From Anaerolineae bacterium (GTDB lineage: Bacteria > Chloroflexota > Anaerolineae > Anaerolineales > RBG-16-64-43), in contig PLND01000063.1 of the NCBI GenBank assembly GCA_003141675.1, positions 30,036 through 94,035 on the forward strand: a stretch of 64,000 bases of DNA. The letters are read 5' to 3'. Of this stretch, positions 15,218 to 61,692 are shown in pieces. Below the pieces are notes generated by a model, which was not told the origin of the DNA, made no database searches, and saw only the letters and a list, made by a program, of their open reading frames with translations. The translations under genes and the position numbers were made by a program. The stretch's first letter is position 1, and each line of letters begins with the position of its first letter.

Positions 15218-15228
15218 TGTCGAACTTT

Positions 15229-15268
15229 TAACGCAAAGCCCGCCCCGGGTGGGGTGGGCTTTGCGTTA
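15229..15268 (+). terminator. terminator-like hairpin after CDF gene
   Basis: 13-bp stem TAACGCAAAGCCC / GGGCTTTGCGTTA. The downstream T-run is weak. Confidence 0.45.
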
Positions 15269-15397
15269 AGATTTAAAGTTCTTACAATTGAGCCGAAAAC
15301 ACTCCTAGTTTAAAAATAATTATATATAGACAAAATCATGTTCTGACAACACCGAACAGATAGGGCTTTACCTATCCCAAGTTGTATAATCCCACCC

Positions 15398-17852: not shown

Positions 17853-17935
17853 GGTTTGTGAAAAGGTCAGGGTTTGTCATTGCGAACCCCGCCCCGGCCC
17901 ACTCCGACCGGGGCGGGCGAAGCAATCTGGGTTTT
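17853..17935 (+). repeat. partial copy of the composite palindromic repeat family seen at 53097-54339
   Basis: TTTGTGAAAAGGTCA...CCCGCCCCGG-cccactccga-CCGGGGCGGG-CGAAG matches TTTGTGGAAAGAGTCA...CCGGCCCACCCCACCGGGGCGGGCGAAG of the lysE-flanking units. Perfect 10-bp stem. Confidence 0.7.
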
Positions 17936-36163: not shown

Positions 36164-36640
36164 TATTTTCTTTTCGTGATACAAAAATGACAACCGATCG
36201 GGAATATCTTCTTTGGATTTGGACAACTTTTTACAGGCTTGTCGAATGCTTGAGACGACGTTCTCTTCGTCATGCAATATTTCCTCATTCGAGATATGGA
36301 TCACGCGAAGTCCCAAGGATTCCAAGAATCGATCTCGTTCCAAATCCATATCTTTTTGGTTTAAGTGAATATCTCCGTCCGCTTCGATAACCAGACGTGC
36401 TGTATAGCAGATGAAATCTACAATATAGGGGCCAAGGACAACTTGCCTTCGAAAATGCAATCCATCCAGCCGGTGAGCCCGCAACCTATTCCATAATCGT
36501 TTTTCCGCTTTCGTTGGATTTTTTCGAAATTCCTTCGATAAACGGATTTTGTCATGGTTTGTCTGATGAGTAAAGATAATTGGCATAATACTGTTTGGTG
36601 TCCCCCTTTTTGAAATATTCCGATCTTCAAACAATATCAC
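36155..36640 (-). CDS. DUF559 (Vsr-like PD-(D/E)xK) endonuclease-domain protein
   Basis: NPTKAEKRLWNRLR...LHFRRQVVLGPYIVDFICYTARLVIEADGDIH. GC is about 30-45% by spot count, against over 60% in neighbours. Alternative ATG at 36586 (MPIIFTHQ). The 3' end overlaps the helicase stop by 9 nt. Confidence 0.85.
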   Translation of the reverse strand: MILFEDRNISKRGTPNSIMPIIFTHQTNHDKIRLSKEFRKNPTKAEKRLWNRLRAHRLDGLHFRRQVVLGPYIVDFICYTARLVIEADGDIHLNQKDMDLERDRFLESLGLRVIHISNEEILHDEENVVSSIRQACKKLSKSKEDIPDRLSFLYHEKKILI

Positions 36641-37010
36641 AAGCTCCTGTTATTGGCCGCGGTGCTTACCCTTCCACTCACCCCTCCCCAGAATGGGGAG
36701 GGGCCGGAGGAGAGGTAAGTAGTGACGAATTGGCTTAGGCGCAATGATTTCCCCCTCTCGATATTTTCCGATCGTCAAACCATATCACAAAGTCCTATTA
36801 TTGGCTGTGGCACTCACCCCTCTCCAGATTGGGGAGGGGCCGGAGGAGAAGTAAGTAGTGACGAATTGGATTTGGTGCAATGATTTGCTCCCTCCCGATA
36901 TTTTCCGATCGTCAAACCATATCACAGAGTCCTATTATTAGCTGTGGCGGTGACCCCTGCCCTCACCCCTCCCCAGATTGGGGAGGGGCCGGGGGAGAGG
37001 TAAGTCTGGT
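36600..37010. repeat. three tandem about 136-149-bp repeat units upstream of the DUF559 gene
   Basis: CCGATC(T/G)TCAAAC landmarks at 36620, 36769 and 36905. Each unit carries the hairpin CCCCTCCCC-AGA(A/T)T-GGGGAGGGG (36681-36703, 36817-36839, 36966-36988) and GTAAGTAGTGACGAATTGG. Unit 1 overlaps the annotated 5' end of the gene. Confidence 0.85.
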
Positions 37011-37056
37011 GACTTTTGTCATTCCTGCCAAAATGAATTAGGGGCCGGGGGAGGGG

Positions 37057-49207: not shown

Positions 49208-49299
49208 GCGGGATATTTTACCCTTCTCTCCCGATTGGAAAGGATCGCATCCCCTGTGATAAAATTATCCTCAATCCAACGGCGGGCTTCAGGCCCGCC

Positions 49300-49425
49300 G
49301 GCTCATCCAGAGAGGCGGAGGGACCGGCCCGATGAAGCCTCGGCAACCGCCCCGCGCCAGCGGGAAAGGTGCCAACTCCGGCAGAAACCCGGCATAAGCG
49401 CCGGGCATTCTGGAAGATGAGGAGC
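49300..49425 (+). promoter_or_regulatory. SAM-I (S-box) riboswitch aptamer
   Basis: CUCAUCCAGAGAGGCGGAGGGACCGGCCCGAUGAAGCCUCGGCAACC...AAGGUGCCAACUCCGGCAGA...GGAAGAUGAG matches the S-box consensus nearly base for base. P1 pairs CTCATC (49302-49307) with GATGAG (49416-49421). Confidence 0.95.
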
Positions 49426-49437
49426 GAAGGTAGTATT

Positions 49438-49463
49438 AACCTCTCTTCCAGAGAGGTTTTTTT
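49438..49463 (+). terminator. riboswitch expression-platform terminator
   Basis: Stem AACCTCTC / GAGAGGTT, loop TTCCA, then a T7 run. GGAAGATGAGG (49412-49422) can alternatively pair with CCTCTCTTCC (49440-49449) as an antiterminator. Confidence 0.85.
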
Positions 49464-49471
49464 ATCCCTGA

Positions 49472-49559
49472 CCTAGCCTCCTCACCCGGCCTTCGGCCAC
49501 CCTCTCCCCCTTCCCTTAAGGGAAGGGGGAGAGGGTCGGGGAGGGGAGTGGGGGTTAGG
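49472..49559 (+). repeat. about 88-nt GC-rich extended palindrome between riboswitch terminator and metH start
   Basis: Perfect 16-bp core CCCTCTCCCCCTTCCC-TTAA-GGGAAGGGGGAGAGGG (49500-49535) with imperfect outer arms. Shares the GGCCTTCGGCC submodule with the lysE-flanking repeats. Confidence 0.8.
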
Positions 49560-49575: not shown

Positions 49576-52500
49576 ATGATCTTCGAACGCAGATACCTCG
49601 ACGCCCTGGCTCAGCGCGTACTGGTGCATGGCGGAGTGATGGGCTCCAATATCCAAAAGCTCAACCTGACGGCCGAGGATTACGGCGGTCGGGTCACGGA
49701 GGGTTTGAGCGACTACCTCACGCTGGTCAAACCCTCGGTGATTACGGACGTGCACCGCTCTTTCCTCGAGGTCGGCGTGGACGTGATCATCACCTGTTCC
49801 TTCCGCGCCAACCGGATCACGCTCAAAGATTACGGCCTGGAGGATAAAGTCCATGAGATCACCCGTGCGGCCGCGACGCTGGCCCGCCGGGCGGCGGATG
49901 AATTTTCCACCTCCGCCCAACCGCGCTTCGTGGTCGGCACGATCGGCCCGACGGGCAAGCTGCCCTCCTCGGAGGATCCGGAGCTGTCGAACGTCTCCTT
50001 CGACGAGCTGGTCGACATCGCCCGCGAGCAGGCGGTGGGGCTGATCGAAGGCGGGTCGGACGCGATCGTGCTTGAGACGTCGCAGGACCTGCTCGAACTG
50101 AAAGCCTCGATCTTCGGCGCGCACAAGGCGTTTGCCGAAACCGGCAAGCGCGTGCCGATCCAAGCCCAGGTGACGCTGGATACCACCGGCCGCATGCTGC
50201 TGGGCACCGACATCACCGCCGTGGCCGCGGTTCTCGAACGCCTGCCGGTCGAGGTGATCGGCCTCAACTGTTCCACCGGCCCGGAGCACATGCGCGAGCC
50301 GGTGCGTTACCTGTGCGAACATTCGGCCAAATTCATTTCCGCCATCCCCAACGCCGGCATGCCGCTAAACATCGACGGCCGGGCGGTGTATCCGCTCGAG
50401 CCGGAACCGTTTGCGCGCGCGCTGGCCGAGTTTGCGGAAAAATTCGGCGCTAACGTAGTCGGCGGCTGCTGCGGCACAACGCCCGAGCACCTCAGGCGGC
50501 TGGTGGAACTCGTCGGCGGGCGTCCGCGGCTCCAGCGCGCCGTCACGGCGGAGCCCGAACTTTCCTCGGCGATGCGGGCGGTGGCGATGCGGCAATCCCC
50601 GCCACCGCTGCTGATCGGCGAGCGGCTCAACACGCAGGGCAGCCGCAAGGTGAAAGAACTGCTGCTAGCGGAGAATTTCGAGGCGCTCGCGCAGATCGGC
50701 CGGGAGCAGACGGAGGGCGGGGCGCACGCGCTGGACGTATGCACCGCGCTCACCGAGCGCGCCGACGAGGCGGATTTGATGAGGCGGTTGGTTCACAAAC
50801 TGGCGCTTAGCGTCGACGCCCCGTTGGTCGTTGACTCGACCGAGGCGGCCGTGATCGAGGCCGCGCTGAAGGCCGCGCCCGGCCGCTGCATCGTCAACTC
50901 GATCCACTTGGAGGGCGGCCGCGGGCGGATCGATTCGTACGTTCCGCTGGCCAAAGCGCACGGCGCGGCATTGATCGCGCTGACCATCGACGAGCAGGGG
51001 ATGGCCAAGACCGCCCAGCGCAAGCTCGAGGCGGCCCATCGCATATTCGAAATCGCCACCGGCGAGTTCGGTCTGGCGCCGGAGGATCTGATCTTCGATC
51101 TTCTCACCTTCACCCTGGCCACCGGCGAGGAGGAATTCGCCCGCTCGGCGATCGAGACCATCGAAGGCGTCCGGCGTTTGAAGCAGGAGCTGCCCGGCGT
51201 GTTCACCTCGCTGGGCGTGAGCAACGTATCCTTCGGGCTCTCTCCCGCCGCGCGCGCCGTGCTCAACTCGGTCTTTCTCTATCACTGCGTAAAGGCGGGA
51301 CTGGATATGGCGATCGTCAACCCCCGGCAGATCACACCGTACGCGGATATCCCCGCGCGCGCGCGAGAGCTGGCCGAGGATCTGATCTTCAACCGCCGGA
51401 ACGACGCGCTCTCAAGGTTGATCGCCGCATTTGAGGGCGTGGCGGCCACAGCCGAGGCACCGGACGAGGCCGCGGGGCTGCCGCTTGAGGAACGCATCCC
51501 CTGGCGGATAGTCCATCGCAAGCGGGAGCATATAGAAGAAGAGATCGATGCGCTCTTGGCGCAGCGGTTGCGGGCATCTGGGAAGAATGCGGACGGGCCG
51601 ATCCCCAATCCGGAATCCAGCCGCGCCGCAGTGGTTCTCCTCAACACGCTTTTACTACCGGCGATGAAAGAAGTGGGCGATCTATTTGGGAGAGGCGAAC
51701 TCATCCTGCCCTTCGTGCTGCAATCGGCCGAGGTGATGAAGCGCGCCGTGACGCACCTGGAGCGCTACCTGGTGCGCGCCGAGGGCGTGACCAAAGGCAA
51801 GCTGGTGCTGGCGACGGTCTATGGTGACGTGCACGACATCGGCAAGAACCTGGTCAAGACGATCCTGGTCAACAACGGCTTCACGGTGATCGACCTGGGG
51901 AAACAGGTGCCGGTGGAGACGATCGTGGCGCGGGCGGAGGAGGAGAAAGCGGATGCCATCGGGCTTTCGGCGCTGCTGGTTTCCACCAGCCGCCAGATGC
52001 CGCTGGTGGTGCAGGAACTGAACCGCCGCGGGGCGCGCACGCCGGTGCTCATCGGCGGGGCCGCGATCAACCGCACGTTTGGCCGAAGAATTCTCTTCGG
52101 GCAGGAACATCAGCCGTATCAAGGCGGGGTGTTCTATTGCAAGGACGCCTTTGAAGGGCTTGCGACGATGGAGAAATTGCGCGACCCGGCCGCCCGCGAG
52201 GAAGCGATCCGCGCCAATCGCGCCGAGGCGGAGGAGGAGAAGATTTCTCCGCCGGTTGCACCCGCGCCGGGCGCGCCGCTCCGTTCGGAGGCGGCCGCCC
52301 ACCGCGTTCCGATCCCCGTTCCGCCATTCTACGGCGCGCGCATCGTGCGTGATATGGAACTTTCCGAAGTGTTCGATTGCCTCGACCGCGACGAGCTCTA
52401 CCGCCTCTCGTGGGGGGCCAAGAATACGCACGGTGCGGATTGGGATCGCCTGCGCAAGGAATTCGACGCCCGGTTCGAGCAAATGACATGCGAGGCCCTG

Positions 52501-53091
52501 CGCGCGCCGTGGCTTTACCCGCAGGGAGTGTATGGATACTTCCCCGCCCAATCCGCGGGCGACACGTTGATCGTCTACGATCCGGCGTCGGTGCCCACCA
52601 GCGCGCCGCGCGAGCTGGCGCGCTTTACCTTCCCGCGCCAGCCGGAGCAGGAAAGATTGTGCCTGGCCGATTATTTTGCCCCGGTGGATTCCGGCCTACT
52701 GGATCTGGCGATCTTCCAGGTGGTGACGGTCGGCCGTGAGGCGACCGCCCGTCTCGAGAAACTGCAATCGGCCGACGAATATTCGCAGGGCTATTATCTG
52801 CATGGGCTCGCGGTACAGACCGCGGAAGCGGCGGCCGAGTATTTGCACCGCAGGATCCGGAGCGAACTCGCGCTGCCGGCGGACCGCGGCAAGCGTTATT
52901 CGTGGGGCTATCCCGCCGTTCCCGCGCTTGAGGATCATCGTAAAGTGTTCGACCTGCTTCCCGCGGAGAAGGAACTCGGTATGGCGCTCACGCCTGCGTT
53001 CCAACTCGTGCCGGAACAATCCACAGCCGCGATCGTGGTGCACCATCCGGAGGCGAAATACTTCATGGTGCCGCAGGCGAGGCAGGGATGA
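49576..53091 (+). CDS. metH: cobalamin-dependent methionine synthase
   Basis: Hcy-binding domain (GGCCGTTPEH), pterin-binding domain, B12 motif GDVHDIGKN and a C-terminal AdoMet-activation domain. Confidence 0.97.
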   Translation: MIFERRYLDALAQRVLVHGGVMGSNIQKLNLTAEDYGGRVTEGLSDYLTLVKPSVITDVHRSFLEVGVDVIITCSFRANRITLKDYGLEDKVHEITRAAATLARRAADEFSTSAQPRFVVGTIGPTGKLPSSEDPELSNVSFDELVDIAREQAVGLIEGGSDAIVLETSQDLLELKASIFGAHKAFAETGKRVPIQAQVTLDTTGRMLLGTDITAVAAVLERLPVEVIGLNCSTGPEHMREPVRYLCEHSAKFISAIPNAGMPLNIDGRAVYPLEPEPFARALAEFAEKFGANVVGGCCGTTPEHLRRLVELVGGRPRLQRAVTAEPELSSAMRAVAMRQSPPPLLIGERLNTQGSRKVKELLLAENFEALAQIGREQTEGGAHALDVCTALTERADEADLMRRLVHKLALSVDAPLVVDSTEAAVIEAALKAAPGRCIVNSIHLEGGRGRIDSYVPLAKAHGAALIALTIDEQGMAKTAQRKLEAAHRIFEIATGEFGLAPEDLIFDLLTFTLATGEEEFARSAIETIEGVRRLKQELPGVFTSLGVSNVSFGLSPAARAVLNSVFLYHCVKAGLDMAIVNPRQITPYADIPARARELAEDLIFNRRNDALSRLIAAFEGVAATAEAPDEAAGLPLEERIPWRIVHRKREHIEEEIDALLAQRLRASGKNADGPIPNPESSRAAVVLLNTLLLPAMKEVGDLFGRGELILPFVLQSAEVMKRAVTHLERYLVRAEGVTKGKLVLATVYGDVHDIGKNLVKTILVNNGFTVIDLGKQVPVETIVARAEEEKADAIGLSALLVSTSRQMPLVVQELNRRGARTPVLIGGAAINRTFGRRILFGQEHQPYQGGVFYCKDAFEGLATMEKLRDPAAREEAIRANRAEAEEEKISPPVAPAPGAPLRSEAAAHRVPIPVPPFYGARIVRDMELSEVFDCLDRDELYRLSWGAKNTHGADWDRLRKEFDARFEQMTCEALRAPWLYPQGVYGYFPAQSAGDTLIVYDPASVPTSAPRELARFTFPRQPEQERLCLADYFAPVDSGLLDLAIFQVVTVGREATARLEKLQSADEYSQGYYLHGLAVQTAEAAAEYLHRRIRSELALPADRGKRYSWGYPAVPALEDHRKVFDLLPAEKELGMALTPAFQLVPEQSTAAIVVHHPEAKYFMVPQARQG

Positions 53092-53096
53092 GATTG

Positions 53097-53317
53097 TTGT
53101 GTGGAAAGAGTCACTGATCCCTCGCCCAAAAACCGGGCTCGGGATGACATCCCATGGGACCGTAGCGCACACTCAGTATGTCATTCCGACCCCGAGCGTA
53201 GCGAGGGGGAGGAATCGGTAACGCATGGTTGGAGAGATGCATGTTTTGTGGATTGCGTCCGCGATTCCTCGGCTTTCGGCCTCGGAGTGACATTCAATAG
53301 GAGTGACATTGAATAGG
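53097..53317 (+). repeat. composite palindromic repeat, copy A (one half-unit plus one degenerate full unit)
   Basis: TTGTGTGGAAAGAGTCAC...GATGACATCC, then TATGTCATTCCGA...GGAATCGGTAACGCATGG...TTTTGTGGAT...GAGTGACATTCAATAGG. Starts 6 nt after the metH stop. Confidence 0.8.
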
Positions 53318-53337
53318 AATGGCCTTTCATAATTGAC

Positions 53338-53958
53338 ATGATCCCCTATATTCTTCAAGGCATCGTCTTCGGTTTCGCAGCCGCGGTACAGCCCGGCCCG
53401 TTGCAGGCGTACATCATCCTGCAGACCTTGAAGCATGGCTGGCGGCGGACGATTGTGCTCGCGATCGTCCCGCTGTTGAGCGACATGCCAATCATCGCGG
53501 TGGTCGTATTCGTTTTGGCGGCCATCCCAAATCTGTGGGTGATTGCACTGCGAGTCATCGGCGGCGCCTTCCTGCTCCACCTCGCGGCGAGTGCGGTTCG
53601 TTCGGTTCGGAACGCGCCGGAAGAGACGGATGCGACGGAAGGAGCCCAACCCAGGGGATTGCCGCAGGCTGTGTTGATCAATCTGCTTAATCCCAATCCG
53701 TACCTTTTCTGGGGTTTGGTCACCGGCCCGATTTTAATCGTCGGATGGAAACAAAATCCCGCCTTCGGAATCGGATTGATCGCGGCGTTTTATCTTGTAT
53801 TGATTTTTTTCAATGCGGTGATCATCCTGGTGGTTTCCTCCGCGCGGCGGCTGAACCTTCGCTTCCGCCGGCTTCTCGTGATCCTCTCGGCGGGCGGACT
53901 CGCCGTCTTCGGCGTGTACCAATTGTGGATGGGGATCGCGGGCCTGTTCCACGGCTGA
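53338..53958 (+). CDS. LysE/RhtB-family amino-acid exporter
   Basis: About 6 TM helices. N-terminal GFAAAVQPGPLQ and LNPNPYLFW blocks are typical of LysE/RhtB. Confidence 0.85.
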   Translation: MIPYILQGIVFGFAAAVQPGPLQAYIILQTLKHGWRRTIVLAIVPLLSDMPIIAVVVFVLAAIPNLWVIALRVIGGAFLLHLAASAVRSVRNAPEETDATEGAQPRGLPQAVLINLLNPNPYLFWGLVTGPILIVGWKQNPAFGIGLIAAFYLVLIFFNAVIILVVSSARRLNLRFRRLLVILSAGGLAVFGVYQLWMGIAGLFHG

Positions 53959-53985
53959 CAATGGGAAAGACGGCACGCACTTCGT

Positions 53986-54339
53986 ATATCATTCCGAACC
54001 CGACATCGAGCGGAGCGAGATGGAGGGGGAGGAGTCGGTGATGCGTGGATGAAGAGAAGCGGGTTTTGTGGAAAGAGTCACTGACTCCTCGGCCTTCGGC
54101 CATCCCGGCCCACCCCACCGGGGCGGGCGAAGTGACATTCAATAGGGATGACACCAAATGGGATCGCTTCACACATGCAGGATGTCATTCCGAGGAGCCC
54201 TGAAAGGGCGACGAGGAATCGGTAGCGCATGAATGAAGAGAAGCAGGCTTTGTGGAAAGAGTCACCGACTCCTCGGCCTTTGGCCTCCCCGGCCCACCCC
54301 ACCGGGGCGGGCGGAGTGACATTCAATAGGGATGACATC
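53986..54339 (+). repeat. composite palindromic repeat, copies B (53986-54155) and C (54182-54339) in tandem
   Basis: Both copies read ATGTCATTCCGA-[hairpin]-GGAATCGGT(A/G)(A/G)CGCATG-AAGAGAAGC(A/G)GG-TTTGTGGAAAGAGTCAC(T/C)GACTCCTCGGCCTT(C/T)GGCC-CCCGGCCCACCCCACCGGGGCGGGCG(A/G)AGTGACATTCAATAGGGATGACA. B and C are closely similar over the shared 3' two-thirds (near-identical by eye). Confidence 0.9.
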
Positions 54340-54367
54340 GATTAGGCGTGATATTTCCTGGGAGAGT

Positions 54368-56224
54368 ATGACCAACCAATTTCTGCAACGGCTCACTTTG
54401 AACGGCGGCAAACCGCTCCTGGCCGACGGCGCGATGGGGACGCTGCTCTTGGCGCGCGGCGCGCTGCCGGAAGAAAATCTCGACGAGCTCAACCTTAAGC
54501 GCCCCGAGCTGGTTGCGCAGGTCCACCGGGACTACCTGCGCTCGGGCGCGCAGATCATCGAGACCAATACCTACGGCGCCAACCGCTACAAACTTACAGT
54601 GATGGGGCTGGAAAGCAAACTGGAAGAAATCATCCGCGCCGGCGTAAAAATCGCCCGGCGCGAGGCGGAACGTAATGCGGGAGGGGCCCTGGTGGCGGGC
54701 AGCATGGGGCCGCTCGGCGTGCGCCTCTCCCCCTACGGGCGTGTCAAACCGGAGGCAGCCGAGGCCGCGTTCGGCGAACAGGCGTCGCTTCTATTAAAAG
54801 AAGGCGTGGATCTGATCTTGATCGAATCGCTTAATGACGTCCAGGAAGCGCTCGCGGCATTGCGCGCAACCCGAGCTGCGGGAGCGCGGTTCATCGGGGT
54901 GAGTCTGACCTTCACCCGCGACGGATTAACGCTCCTGGGCGATTCTCCAGTCGAGGCGGCGCGCATGCTGGCCGAGGCGGGCGCGGATCTGATCGGCGTC
55001 AACTGTTCGAGCGGTCCGGCGCAGGCGATCCGAATCTTAACAGCGATGCGCTCGGCGGCACCGCAGGCTCGCTTCTCCGCGATGCCGAACGCCGGCTGGC
55101 CCGAAACCGTCGGCGGACGGATACTCTACCCGGCCGGGCCGGGATACTTCGGCCGGTACGCGCAAGCGTTTGCCGAAGCGGGCGCAAGCGTGATCGGGGG
55201 CTGCTGCGGTACCACCCCGGAACACATCGCGGCGATGGGCCGCGCGCTGGAATCCTTCAAGCCCATAAAGGCTGGCGCGACGATCGCGGTGGAAGCGGTG
55301 GGCGAGGAACGCTCAGCTGAGCCGCCGGAGCCGACCCAATTTGCCGTCAAGCTTGCGTCCGGAAAATTCACCATCGGAGTCGAGGTCGATCCGCCGAAGG
55401 GATTCTCAACCCACAAACTGATGGCTGGAGCGAGTATGCTTGCCGAGGCGGGCGCGGACGTGATCAACGTAGCCGACAGCCCGATGGCGCGCATGCGCAT
55501 GAGCCCCTGGGCGGTGTGTCGCCTGATCCAGGAGCGCTTCGGGATCGAAACGATATTGCACTTCCCGACCCGCGGGCGCAACCTGCTGCGCGTGCAGGGC
55601 GACCTGCTGGCGGCGCACGCCCTGGGCATCCGGAATCTCTTCGTGGTCATGGGCGACCCGACCGCCGTGGGGGATTTTCCGCACTCGGCCGACAATTACG
55701 ACATCGTCCCTTCCGGCCTGATCCGCCTGATCAAGGGATCCTTCAACCTCGGCCGCGATAACGCCGGGCGCGATATCGGTGCGCCGACCGCATTCTTCGT
55801 CGGCTGCGCGCTTAATTTGTGCGCGCCCGATCCCATTAAAGAGATAAAAACCTTGCGCAGGAAGATCGACGCCGGCGCGGATTTCATCCTCACCCAGCCG
55901 GTGTTCGAGCCGGAATGCGCCGCTTCCTTTTTGGATGCATACCGCCACGAGTGCGGCGAGCTGAAAGCGCCCGTGCTGGCCGGGATCATGCCGCTCTACG
56001 GCGTGAAGCACGCCGCTTTCCTGCACAACGAGGTGCCGGGAATGGCGATCCCGGAGAAAATCCGCGCGCGCATCGAGCGGGCGGGCGAGCGCGCGCCGGA
56101 GGAAGGCGTGCGCATCGCGATCGAACTCCTGCGCGCGCTGCGTGGCTTGGTCCAAGGCGCGTACGTCATGCCGGCCTTCGGGCGCTACGACCTGGCGGCG
56201 GAGATCATCGAGGGGATGAAATAA
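54368..56224 (+). CDS. bifunctional homocysteine S-methyltransferase / 5,10-methylenetetrahydrofolate reductase (YitJ-like)
   Basis: N-terminal Hcy-binding domain (LLADGAMGT, NCSSGP, GGCCGTTPEH) and C-terminal MTHFR domain (PTRGRN, TQPVFE). Start MTNQFLQRL. The 12 upstream codons of the ORF lie inside repeat copy C. Confidence 0.92.
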   Translation: MTNQFLQRLTLNGGKPLLADGAMGTLLLARGALPEENLDELNLKRPELVAQVHRDYLRSGAQIIETNTYGANRYKLTVMGLESKLEEIIRAGVKIARREAERNAGGALVAGSMGPLGVRLSPYGRVKPEAAEAAFGEQASLLLKEGVDLILIESLNDVQEALAALRATRAAGARFIGVSLTFTRDGLTLLGDSPVEAARMLAEAGADLIGVNCSSGPAQAIRILTAMRSAAPQARFSAMPNAGWPETVGGRILYPAGPGYFGRYAQAFAEAGASVIGGCCGTTPEHIAAMGRALESFKPIKAGATIAVEAVGEERSAEPPEPTQFAVKLASGKFTIGVEVDPPKGFSTHKLMAGASMLAEAGADVINVADSPMARMRMSPWAVCRLIQERFGIETILHFPTRGRNLLRVQGDLLAAHALGIRNLFVVMGDPTAVGDFPHSADNYDIVPSGLIRLIKGSFNLGRDNAGRDIGAPTAFFVGCALNLCAPDPIKEIKTLRRKIDAGADFILTQPVFEPECAASFLDAYRHECGELKAPVLAGIMPLYGVKHAAFLHNEVPGMAIPEKIRARIERAGERAPEEGVRIAIELLRALRGLVQGAYVMPAFGRYDLAAEIIEGMK

Positions 56225-59946: not shown

Positions 59947-61527
59947 TCATTTCCCGCTCGGGGCGATGACCGCGCAGAATGCCAGCGTGACGTTGGCAAA
60001 TACATCGCTGTGTAAAAGAGGCGTCCCACCCTTATCGTTGGCGACGAACTGATATTGCAACCAGGCCTCCTTGATTTTCAGGGTGGTATGGCCCGGAAGA
60101 TCGTCCAAGATCAAGGTGAATAAATATTTCCCTCCGCCCATCGGGCTCATCGCATCCCCTTGGCTCCAGCCGGATAAATCGCCGCTGCTTTTGTCCTTCA
60201 GCTGGAAGAAGATGCCGATGCTTTGCACAAGGTCGGGTTGGGATACACCGATTTGGAATTGCACTTGGACCGGTCCGCAACTGGCGCCGGGGTAGTAAAA
60301 GTGGTCGGTGGAGATCCAGGGATCGATGAACTTGAGGCCCGAGGCGGTTTGCGTCGGGGTATTCGTTAACGCCGGTGTGGAAGTCGCCGTTGGAGTCGCG
60401 CCGAGCGCCTCCAGCCAGCGGAAGGTGGCGGCGATCTGGTCGAAGACTACGCTCTCAGCCGCCTGATTAAAAAGCGGCGGGGGAGTGGAGTAGTTGCCGG
60501 GATTACCCGAATGCAGGACGCCCGTCAGGCTGGCGCATACGTCGCCGCGCTGAGTCGAGTAGCCGGTCCACTGATAGATGCTCCCGGCCGCGCCCTCGCT
60601 CGCCTTCTGCACCAGAAAATCCAATCCGGCGATGGCGCGGTGCGAGGTTGTGATCACCGCTGGGTCGTATCCCGCCGCCTGCGGGGATTGGCACACGGGT
60701 GGAGCGTTGCTGCCGTCCACGTCCATCCACTTTTCGAGTAGGTTGGTATCCGCGGCGATGGTGAGGTGGATCCGCACGTGAGCCGGGGTTTCATCGGAGA
60801 GGGTCGCATCCGACGGATAGCAAACCTCGAACGCGTAGGTTGCGTTTGTATAGCATAGCCATCCTGCGGGAATCCCCGCGGTCACGGCCGGCGTGGGAGT
60901 TGCCGTTTGAGTCGCACCGGGCGCCTCCAGCCAGCGGAAGGTGGCGGTGATCTGGTCGAAGACGACGCTCTCGGCGGCCGGGTCGATGGTCGGCGGCGGG
61001 GTGGGGTAGTTTAGCGCATCGGTTGTGTGCACCACGCCCGAGAGGCTCGCGCAAACGGCGGCCCGCTGCGTCGAATACCCCATCCAATTGTAGAAGTTGC
61101 CCGCTGCGCCCTGGCTCCCGCTCTGCACCAAGAAATCCAACCCGGCGATCGTCCGGTGGGTATCGTTGGTTGTGCCGGGCGCGTATCCCGCCGCCTGGGG
61201 GCTCACGCACGTTGACAAGCCGCTTGCCGCGTCAACGTCCATCCACTTTTCCGCCAGGTTCGTCCCCGCCGTTACCGGAAAGGAAATCCGCGCGTGCTCC
61301 GGCGTACTGGAACTGAAGGTCGCGTCGGGCGGATAGCAGACCTCGAAGCCGTATGTGGCGTTTGTGTAGCAAACCCAACCGGCCGGAATGGTCGCCGGGG
61401 CGGGGGTCGGCGTGGGCGTCGGGAATTGAGGCAGGTTGCACGCTATCGACGCGATGATCGCCGCCGAGAGAAAGATTGTCGCGCGCAGGAATGCTCTCCG
61501 ATGAATGTCGCGAGTGAATGTTTTCAT
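59947..61527 (-). CDS. Tat-signal lipoprotein with tandemly duplicated about 170-aa domain
   Basis: ATG 61527 behind AGGAGG. HRRAFLRATIFLSAAIIASIAC combines a twin-arginine motif with a lipobox. Two units start IPAGW(V/L)CYTNATY(G/A)FEVCYP and end VVFDQI(T/A)ATFRWLEA. Confidence 0.8.
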   Translation of the reverse strand: MKTFTRDIHRRAFLRATIFLSAAIIASIACNLPQFPTPTPTPAPATIPAGWVCYTNATYGFEVCYPPDATFSSSTPEHARISFPVTAGTNLAEKWMDVDAASGLSTCVSPQAAGYAPGTTNDTHRTIAGLDFLVQSGSQGAAGNFYNWMGYSTQRAAVCASLSGVVHTTDALNYPTPPPTIDPAAESVVFDQITATFRWLEAPGATQTATPTPAVTAGIPAGWLCYTNATYAFEVCYPSDATLSDETPAHVRIHLTIAADTNLLEKWMDVDGSNAPPVCQSPQAAGYDPAVITTSHRAIAGLDFLVQKASEGAAGSIYQWTGYSTQRGDVCASLTGVLHSGNPGNYSTPPPLFNQAAESVVFDQIAATFRWLEALGATPTATSTPALTNTPTQTASGLKFIDPWISTDHFYYPGASCGPVQVQFQIGVSQPDLVQSIGIFFQLKDKSSGDLSGWSQGDAMSPMGGGKYLFTLILDDLPGHTTLKIKEAWLQYQFVANDKGGTPLLHSDVFANVTLAFCAVIAPSGK

Positions 61528-61692
61528 CTCTCCTCCTGTTGCCGAAATTCCGTGTCTTATTTCCACCCACACCGCCAACAATTTATACTATCACTATGTA
61601 GTTGATTTTATAGCGTTCCAAGCTTTTGACAAACCGATAAACATTTATAAAACCTCCAAAAAACCTCCAAAGGGGATGATTTGGTTAAAAAG

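Follow-up and report, generated by a model that had tools for sequence, protein, structure and literature searches.

The question raised by this locus is what kind of element fills the gaps of a methionine operon in an Anaerolineae bacterium. Within a stretch of 64,000 nucleotides (contig PLND01000063.1, called the window in the following), composite palindromic repeats lie on both sides of lysE, the gene for a LysE/RhtB-type exporter, between metH and a yitJ-type gene. We conclude that these repeats are probably a cluster of repetitive extragenic palindromic (REP)-type hairpins in the operon gaps, similar to bacterial interspersed mosaic elements (BIMEs), to the dRS3 repeats of Neisseria and to tandem clusters of REPINs, which are inverted REP doublets. 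Related loci and contigs are designated by L numbers.

Results

The repeat copies and their modules

A sequence-only reading of the window had described three and a half copies of the repeat on the same strand. These copies were recovered by a repeat search and MAFFT alignment as half unit A and the full units B, C and D; the cores of the full units are listed in Table 1, and the wider limits given before take in the linkers. Diagnostic 17- to 18-mers of the units occurred three times within three mismatches, compared with 0.00-0.07 expected occurrences in shuffled sequences. Identity between units C and D is 89.6% over 125 nt, and that of unit B to either of them is about 73%. As the sequence-only reading had stated, the repeats begin 6 nt past the metH stop (last position of the metH open reading frame (ORF), 53091; first position of the repeats, 53097/53098) and occupy both gaps flanking lysE, metH-lysE and lysE-yitJ, so that a lone hairpin and one dimer follow metH and two tandem dimers precede yitJ. 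That a repeat was collapsed or duplicated during assembly is practically out of the question. The short contigs L005 and L008 do end within the C/D tandem, but eight independent assemblies (from ENA, Logan and JGI, three pipelines) match the window over 1.34 kb (53060-54400) at 99.9-100% without gaps, and because they agree the repeats are not an assembly duplication.

The basic module of the repeats, a hairpin of 33-55 nt, carries the unpaired tag (T/C)GTC. The base stem of 5 bp opens A-T, T-A and occurs as ATTCC/GGAAT, ATCCC/GGGAT, ACTCC/GGAGT or ATTGC/GCAAT. Above the base stem follow a GA/GA internal loop and a variable upper stem, often with a GNA triloop cap, and the module ends in a short tail. 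The forward hairpin, X, reads TGTC-ATTCC-GA-(variable top)-GA-GGAAT-CGG. The inverted hairpin, Y, is the opposite-strand ATCCC or ACTCC variant of the same hairpin type and reads GTCATCCCGAG..CGAGGGATC or GTCACTCCG.. on the minus strand, and GTCATTCCGAGG..CCGAGGAATC in L009. Because X and Y are one type of element read from opposite strands, a unit consists of two palindromic modules in inverted orientation with the tags outward, a head-to-head dimer of 110-150 nt. Half unit A, behind metH, consists of a single Y module and a spacer stub. In the earlier modular description the closure of a variable hairpin by GTCATTCC...GGAATC held good; the second module is better described by the pairing ACTCC/GGAGT or ATCCC/GGGAT, as an inverted copy of the hairpin type of the first.

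From hairpin to hairpin the interval in the window units is 45-46 nt, with a core of 27-28 nt between the anchor segments that we defined. The spacer has a purine-rich centre, terminates in ..TTTGTGGAAAGAGTCACC and has partly complementary ends, and the units are connected by a second conserved linker. The tag is TGTC in B, D and a solitary hairpin elsewhere in the window, TATC in C, and TGTC on the minus strand in the Y modules. In unit C the X hairpin has the tag ATC (read as TATC) and the stem ATTCC/GGAGT, and the Y hairpin carries two tops, GGCCTTCGGCC and CCCGG..CCGGGGCGGG. The tops are often C-GNA-G triloops on the tag-carrying strand (GCGTAGC, GCGGAGC, CCGAAGG), and the arms contain CGAG/CGAG, which is the YGAR context of tandem G-A pairs. 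Mini-hairpins of the GCGNAGC type are unusually stable in DNA (PMC13037366). Single modules fold with a base of 5 bp, a 2x2 loop and an upper stem above it; the hairpin of half unit A (minus strand 53148->53116, GTCATCCCGAGCCCGGTTTTTGGGCGAGGGATC) takes this form as single-stranded DNA, with GA in the loop (z=-2.9). At the 3' end of unit B, directly before the lysE start, a 16-nt tandem duplication (GTGACATTCAATAGGA / GTGACATTGAATAGGA, 53283-53328) shows small-scale slippage.

The claim that the repeats are non-coding, nested modular palindromes which would form strong structures between cistrons was supported; the RNA fold z-scores are -2.1 and -4.6. A coding role of the units was ruled out: all 7 differences between C and D in the sole frame open through both units are non-synonymous (counted by reading), and unit B has indels. 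A comparison of the whole window with Rfam at gathering thresholds gave the SAM-I riboswitch at 49300-49423 as the only match, and at E<=10 the region 52900-54500 gave two chance-level matches, both outside the units. No terminator-like or promoter-like site was predicted within 53092-54368, and a literature search with the sequence strings of the hairpins returned PCR primers only.

Two local hairpins are conserved

For the analysis of covariation the four arms of 17 units from 9 genomes were used. Two local hairpins are 96.3% paired in this set, with 14 compensatory cells in 4 pairs. This covariation was matched by none of 500 shuffles, and slid controls fell to 26-56% paired. The compensating stem versions are ATCCC/GGGAT, ACTCC/GGAGT and ATTCC/GGAAT; columns 4:20, 5:19, 41:57 and 42:56 are A-U or U-A in 11-17 of the 17 units, with C-G compensations at 42:56. 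The multi-branch junction of the minimum free energy fold was rejected as the conserved structure, with 87.5% pairing, 169 of 500 shuffles doing equally well, no excess covariation and one inner pair that is A-C in 10/17 units; the complementarity that it uses arises because two similar palindromes face each other. A long-range model with a single hairpin pairs 97.4% of the outer and 81% of the inner arms, without covariation beyond that of the local hairpins. The covariation supports two local hairpins, not a larger junction fold.

Across all units the hairpin anchor segments have a mean column identity of 88%. Between the window and L022-L029, the four-fold-degenerate sites of metH, lysE and yitJ are 48-64% identical. 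The stems would be either selected, for a local function or for recognition by a protein, or continually renewed from a genome-wide pool.

The composite repeat in related operons

A pattern of spacer plus Y module that matches all four window copies was used to scan 185,579 species genomes. It found only the orthologous operons of L009, an Anaerolineales metagenome-assembled genome (MAG), and L010, a MAG of an uncultured Chloroflexia, together with one chance match in coding sequence; the pattern is specific for the spacer and blind to other members of the family. A looser pattern applied to a JGI metagenome set gave 9 matches, all by chance in unrelated coding sequence, and blastn against deposited plasmids and phages gave no match to the repeats. 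Further operons of relatives were retrieved with yitJ homologues as anchors. Units are present in the metH-lysE gap, the gap before yitJ or both in L009, L010, L021, L022, L024, L025, L027, L029 and L112, the yitJ genes of which are 72-90+% identical to that of the window in a codon alignment. L028 (yitJ 74%) has a compact metH-lysE-yitJ cluster without units, and L030 (62%) also has none. The composite with this spacer is confined to this operon in about ten related Anaerolineales genomes.

The units are exclusively intergenic, and all lie on the sense strand. Where present, they number 0.5-2 per gap, and their layout changes from genome to genome. L021 has a lone Y before lysE and one dimer after the methyltransferase gene that follows lysE there; in L009 a truncated Y and one dimer precede lysE, and one dimer again follows the methyltransferase gene. 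L022, like the window, has Y and one dimer before lysE and two dimers after it. In L112 a lone Y precedes lysE, and a methyltransferase stub is fused to one dimer behind it. L027 and L029 carry two dimers before lysE and a different repeat after it, and at the orthologous site of half unit A they hold a complete dimer. Copy number and arrangement turn over quickly in these operons. The sequence-only reading had contrasted repeats dispersed in the genome with a structure limited to this locus and conserved unchanged in relatives. What we found lies between the two: the composite is specific to the locus, but it varies among relatives and is built of hairpin modules that occur widely.

Two matches with L009 concern the origin of the C-D tandem. 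The X top of unit C is that of the L009 unit upstream of yitJ, which makes these two units orthologous, and the tail of unit D matches the tail of the same single unit in L009. Since both ends of the tandem match one unit, C-D seems to have arisen when a single ancestral dimer was duplicated in tandem.

As a side observation, the lysE-yitJ gaps of L027 (9090-10000) and L029 (9120-10000) are packed with another palindrome of 13 bp, CACCTGACAGGTG / CACCTGTCAGGTG. About 5-8 copies per genome are spread over two gaps and surround a 195-aa ORF without a Pfam match.

The methyltransferase slot

A gene for a 242-aa class-I methyltransferase lies between lysE and yitJ in L009, L010, L021, L024 and L025. 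The slot is empty in the window, L022 and L028, and in L027 and L029 it is taken by the unrelated 195-aa ORF. In L112, the yitJ of which falls into the same >=90% cluster as that of the window, the first 19 codons of the methyltransferase gene run straight into the X hairpin. At the position of this break the intact gene of L009 reads ..GAATACCGGGATCATTCGAA.. and the hairpin arm reads ATCATTCCGA; because both share ATCATTC, the deletion in L112 joined a 7-nt match. The window has no methyltransferase stub, and a junction-type linker directly adjoins the lysE stop at the position where relatives have a gap of 58 nt and the methyltransferase gene of 729 nt. Its loss in the window was therefore an event separate from that in L112. 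The idea that genes are gained or lost here by recombination stands insofar as the repeats go together with recombination and gene loss, but the gene that was lost is the methyltransferase gene and not lysE.

The hairpin type outside the operon

The hairpin modules, as judged from their sequence features, belong to a widespread family. A scan of IMG/VR with GTCATTCCGAG-N6-36-CGAGGAATC (stem ATTCC/GGAAT) gave at least 113 matches in at least 81 contigs. Among the matches listed, a single contig has as many as five, all of them on the same strand. The ATCCC/GGGAT version was present in 69 contigs. The two mismatched stem combinations were found in 3 contigs each, and about 3 chance matches were estimated for the collection. 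In the matches listed GTC is preceded by T or C in 169/173 viral copies, and 12 distinct viral contigs contain the head-to-head dimer with a forward ATTCC and an inverted ATCCC or ATTCC module. The spacers of viral dimers measure 21-41 nt; several have complementary ends of 3-5 bp, and these ends covary (gcggc/gccgc vs gtggc/gccac). Viral tails are TCN or TGC, compared with CGG in the window. The inner length ranges from 6 to 36 nt, the shortest version (6 nt, e.g. GTCATTCCGAGCGAAGCCGAGGAATC) approaching a stem of 9 bp and a loop of 3 nt. With gene calls from a GC-frame filter that had been validated on the operon, the viral copies proved to be mostly intergenic and in either orientation (31 opposite and 14 same between co-directional genes), often 0-15 nt from the preceding stop codon. 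Seven related IMG/VR contigs (L057, L092, L095, L097, L050, L052 and L082) share a conserved head-to-head dimer, located at the same position in each, the spacer ends of which show compensatory changes; L057 and L092 carry further ATCCC-type copies.

In the window the solitary TGTC-tagged hairpin at 17876-17927 folds as single-stranded DNA with -17.2 kcal/mol (z=-4.3), and its top is found again in the Y hairpins of C and D. A relaxed scan of the window for degenerate members gave 4 perfect matches, as compared with about 1 expected, and nothing new. Another strong hairpin, AACGCAAAGCCC...GGGCTTTGCGTT, is located at 15223-15274, just downstream of an ORF whose last position is 15217. The loop of this hairpin, GCCCCGGGTGG, is similar to the C/D top CCCGG..CCGGGGCGGG (blastn 95% over 22 nt, E=0.003), possibly by chance.

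Comparison with described repeat families

The REP superfamily with CGTC tags described by Di Nocera, De Gregorio and Rocco in 2013 includes dRS3 of Neisseria and RPE-4 and RPE-6 of Rickettsia (PMC3733652). Its tag is CGTC, often TGTC, with CCTC variants allowed; the stem starts with AT, a short tail follows, and the repeats occupy tens to thousands of mostly extragenic sites in the genome (PMC3733652). Head-to-head dimers with the tags outside predominate and have conserved spacers of 20-100 bp with complementary ends or a small stem-loop; clusters are known from Neisseria (dRS3) and Wolbachia, clustered CGTC-1 elements are interleaved with other repeats, and there is no dedicated transposase (PMC3733652). 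In the four described CGTC families, which come mostly from alpha-proteobacteria, the stem is continuous over 8-9 bp, the loop measures 4-5 nt and the tail is CCA; for Chloroflexota, GTAG repeats are listed and CGTC-type repeats are not (PMC3733652).

With this superfamily the hairpins of the window share the YGTC tag, the A-T/T-A start of the stem, the short tail, the head-to-head dimer and the spacer with complementary ends. All 17 full units are head-to-head and have a core spacer of 27-28 nt, as dimers of the superfamily are arranged. They differ in their tops, which are very variable and 6-40 nt long as compared with loops of 4-5 nt, and in their hosts, which are Chloroflexota (Anaerolineales) and uncultured viral contigs instead of mostly alpha-proteobacteria. 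Because tag, A-T start, dimer and spacer agree, we class the repeats with the REP/BIME kind, as either a new family or a new member, the CGTC/TGTC superfamily being closest to them. The former statement that they represent no named family is thus right as far as Rfam, phages and plasmids are concerned, where no match was obtained, but it overlooks that the modules fit the CGTC/TGTC-tagged superfamily (PMC3733652).

REPINs, as described by Bertels and Rainey in 2011, are inverted REP doublets that also form tandem clusters "plus an additional REP" (PMC3116915). The repeats of the window resemble them in the two inverted REPs with a spacer that can be folded as one hairpin and in the ordered tandem doublets that include flanking sequence; lone hairpins are found here just as REPIN singlets are remnants of doublets. 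In contrast, REPINs carry a GTAG tag instead of YGTC. They are tied to a RAYT gene (an IS200/IS605-like Y1 HUH transposase) and have hundreds of dispersed copies. The BIMEs of E. coli, mosaics of Y and Z REPs that are bound by IHF, gyrase and Pol I, likewise consist of two hairpin subtypes alternating in orientation with two classes of conserved linkers and lie between genes of one operon, but they have no sequence similarity to the repeats of the window, and the cluster described here was seen in one operon only.

BIMEs shield upstream mRNA from 3' exonucleases, attenuate transcription and affect translation when located no more than about 15 nt from a stop codon (for background see PMC3733652), and these effects offer the most plausible mode of action for the repeats of the window. 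The motif GTCATTCC is also the start of the dRS3-type repeat of Neisseria. The Neisseria intergenic mosaic elements (NIMEs) resemble the repeats of the window as repeat blocks of 50-150 bp that accumulate between genes, each with flanking inverted repeats of the GTCATTCC type, and that are linked to recombination and changes in gene content; they flank genes for surface proteins and serve in the integration of phages or insertion sequences, and nothing like these last two features was seen at the repeats of the window.

Operon context and other features of the window

The S-adenosylmethionine (SAM) riboswitch, metH, lysE and yitJ are one transcription unit (Table 1). The Pfam domains of MetH are S-methyl_trans, Pterin_bind, B12-binding_2, B12-binding and Met_synt_B12 (precomputed for the identical gene in L001). 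YitJ of the window matches a 618-aa cluster representative with 100% identity and coverage. As the sequence-only reading had proposed, the last repeat copy supplies a false ATG for yitJ at 54332. This ATG is in the frame of yitJ, yet homologues and the cluster representative start at 54368, which is preceded by a Shine-Dalgarno-like GGGAGAG; the gene caller of one assembly had chosen 54332 and thereby predicted a YitJ of 630 aa. The nearest named genomes are MAGs of Anaerolineales/Chloroflexota.

Table 1. Positions of the repeat modules, genes and control sites discussed in the text (window numbering unless a locus is named).
Feature	Position	Strand	Remarks
Solitary TGTC-tagged hairpin	17876-17927	+	GTCATTGCGAA-CCCCGCCCCGG..CCGGGGCGGG-CGAAGCAATC
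Promoter-like site	49236-49265		upstream of the SAM-I riboswitch
SAM-I riboswitch aptamer	49300-49423	+	Rfam RF00162, 81.4 bits, E=1.2e-17; head of the operon
Terminator-like hairpin with T run	49438-49458		between SAM-I riboswitch and metH
metH	49576-53091	+	cobalamin-dependent methionine synthase, 1171 aa; ORF
Half unit A	53097-53152	+	spacer remnant 53097-53115 and one inverted REP-type hairpin
Inter-unit junction linker, CCATGGGACCGTAGCGCACACTCAGTAT type	53153-53179	+	aligns with the linkers preceding C and D
Unit B, head-to-head dimer	53180-53291	+	X 53180-53216, spacer 53217-53262, Y 53263-53291
Tail of unit B to the lysE ATG	53292-53337	+	16-nt tandem duplication (GTGACATTSAATAGGA), spacing 16
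lysE	53338-53958	+	LysE/RhtB-type exporter, 206 aa; PF01810
Junction-type linker	53959-53987	+	directly 3' of the lysE stop; site of the missing methyltransferase gene
Unit C, head-to-head dimer	53988-54136	+	X 53988-54036, spacer 54037-54082, Y 54083-54136
Inter-unit linker C-D	54137-54183	+	78% identical to 53141-53189
Unit D, head-to-head dimer	54184-54320	+	X 54184-54220, spacer 54221-54266, Y 54267-54320
Tail of unit D	54321-54367	+	false ATG 54332 and GGGAGAG before yitJ
yitJ	54368-56224	+	bifunctional homocysteine S-methyltransferase / methylenetetrahydrofolate reductase, 618 aa; PF02574 + PF02219
L112 deletion junction	L112 9790-9850 vs L009 2188-2250 and 2925-2945		stub annotated as 36-aa ORF

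The metH leader contains a near-perfect palindrome with 28-nt arms (CCTTCGGCCACCCTCTCCCCCTTCCCTT / AAGGGAAGGGGGAGAGGGTCGGGGAGGG) at 49490-49545, between the terminator of the SAM riboswitch and the metH start codon. Further repeats were observed at two other places of the window. A second tandem composite repeat at 36600-37050 is intergenic and consists of three units of about 137-149 bp, each with a hairpin CACCCCTCCCCAGA(A/T)TGGGGAGGGG followed by CCGGAGGAGAGGTAAGT; this array ends beside ..TTTTGTCATTCCTGCC. A direct repeat of 125 nt (60371-60495 / 60887-61011), 83% identical and 516 nt apart, overlaps an ORF on the minus strand (59947-61581) and is probably an internal protein repeat.

Discussion

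Alternative explanations

The repeats could be a cis-regulatory RNA dedicated to the methionine genes (a riboswitch, a leader or an attenuator) that precedes lysE and yitJ and was duplicated in the operon. The restriction of the composite to the gaps of this operon in about ten genomes, its constant sense orientation, stems conserved far above synonymous sites, alternative pairings among the four arms and folds stronger than those of shuffled sequences would agree with such an RNA. We nevertheless consider it unlikely, since not even at E<=10 was there an Rfam match, a terminator T run is lacking, and L028 and L025 have no element before yitJ. The copy number ranges from 0.5 to 2 per gap, half units included, and the layouts differ at about 89% or more yitJ identity, in one case within the same >=90% cluster. 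Furthermore, only the local hairpins and not a multi-helix junction covary, the spacer diverges freely among distant relatives, and the same hairpins and dimers are present in unrelated viral contigs in both orientations to the genes. This orientation in the viral contigs would be compatible with DNA operators, i.e. palindromes (e.g. GGRATGWCATYCC at the unit ends) that bind a dimeric transcription factor or a nucleoid protein and control internal promoters of lysE and yitJ, as would the conservation of the stem sequence and not of pairing alone and the occurrence of G-T and A-C mismatches without bias to one strand. Operators are just as improbable as a dedicated RNA, however: no sigma-70-like promoter lies in or beside the units, the variable tops of 6-40 nt with compensatory changes indicate extrusion of a hairpin instead of recognition of a duplex, and GNA triloops and YGAR contexts of tandem G-A pairs are features of a folded single strand (PMC13037366 for GCGNAGC).

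The sequence-only reading had also proposed that lysE is a cassette bounded by direct repeats. In the window lysE is indeed flanked by repeats in the same orientation, and the gene content beside the repeats varies. Yet, with metH on one side and yitJ on the other, lysE occurs in all relatives examined as far as 72-77% yitJ identity, the repeat-free L028 among them, and its divergence tracks that of its neighbours; only the most distant locus, L030 (62%), is without it, and L021 and L112 have only a lone hairpin on one side. Thus, lysE is a conserved gene of the operon and not a cassette. An integron-like cassette with attC-type sites is opposed by the absence of an integrase among the precomputed Pfam matches of called genes within 10 kb at the related loci and by the absence of GTTRRRY core sites on reading the sequence. 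We regard a mobile lysE of either type as very improbable.

A probable cluster of REP-type hairpins

The reading as a cluster of REP-type hairpins suggests the following course of events. In an ancestor of this clade of Anaerolineales, dimers would have come into the gaps of metH-lysE-(methyltransferase)-yitJ, an operon under SAM riboswitch control, and would then have undergone local duplication, truncation and recombination. Being part of the transcription unit, the repeats would be transcribed as stable stem-loops, as is suggested by the biology of REPs and BIMEs. Because they would be transcribed and have neither a T tract nor a promoter, the stem-loops may act as barriers to 3'-5' decay, in the attenuation of read-through, or as sites of processing or ribosome stalling. 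Terminating ribosomes might be disturbed by a hairpin situated about 15 nt or less from a stop codon, which is the case behind metH. The outcome would be unequal and uncoupled levels of metH, lysE and yitJ downstream of a single SAM riboswitch. As DNA, the repeats supply homology for slippage, unequal exchange and microhomology deletion, as is documented by comparing the relatives.

Several points weigh against this reading. The effect at the RNA level is entirely inferred. We know of no enzyme that mobilizes these repeats, and none was looked for. Instead of the 8-9-bp stem and 4-5-nt loop of the four described CGTC families, the modules have a base of 5 bp, topped by a GA loop (2x2 or 2x3) and an upper stem that varies, and their tail is CGG or TCN, not CCA. 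The long syntenic retention and the conserved stems could mean a function specific to the locus and not selfish persistence. The copy number in the genome looks low: in the window and an extension of 9.5 kb (73.5 kb in total) the solitary hairpin at 17876 is the only member outside the operon, and about 170 kb of flanking sequence of the relatives contained no family members. Classical REP families are usually denser. Some CGTC-type families comprise only 20-100 units or fewer (PMC3733652).

A less probable and more tentative reading is that the repeats are exapted intercistronic control elements, or an undescribed and very widespread REP family of Chloroflexota and of phage contigs from soil and peat. 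In the case of exaptation the dimers may have been under purifying selection since before the species diverged (yitJ 72-100% identical); if this is true, they are processing or stability sites that set separate levels of metH, lysE and yitJ. The marks of a wide family may be the 5-bp stem led by A-T, the tandem G-A loop and the variable top capped by GNA.

Taken together, the identification as a probable cluster of REP-type hairpins accounts for the repeat block of 1.2 kb without a new kind of system, and two traps for annotation, the 630-aa start of yitJ and lysE as a mobile cassette, are corrected. Dimers of the REP type are documented in Chloroflexota and in many uncultured viral contigs. 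The repeats appear to drive gene loss within the operon: one lineage deleted the methyltransferase gene at a 7-nt arm match, and others lost it independently. Should tuning of expression in this riboswitch-controlled operon prove true, the locus would be a useful example of the exaptation of repeats.

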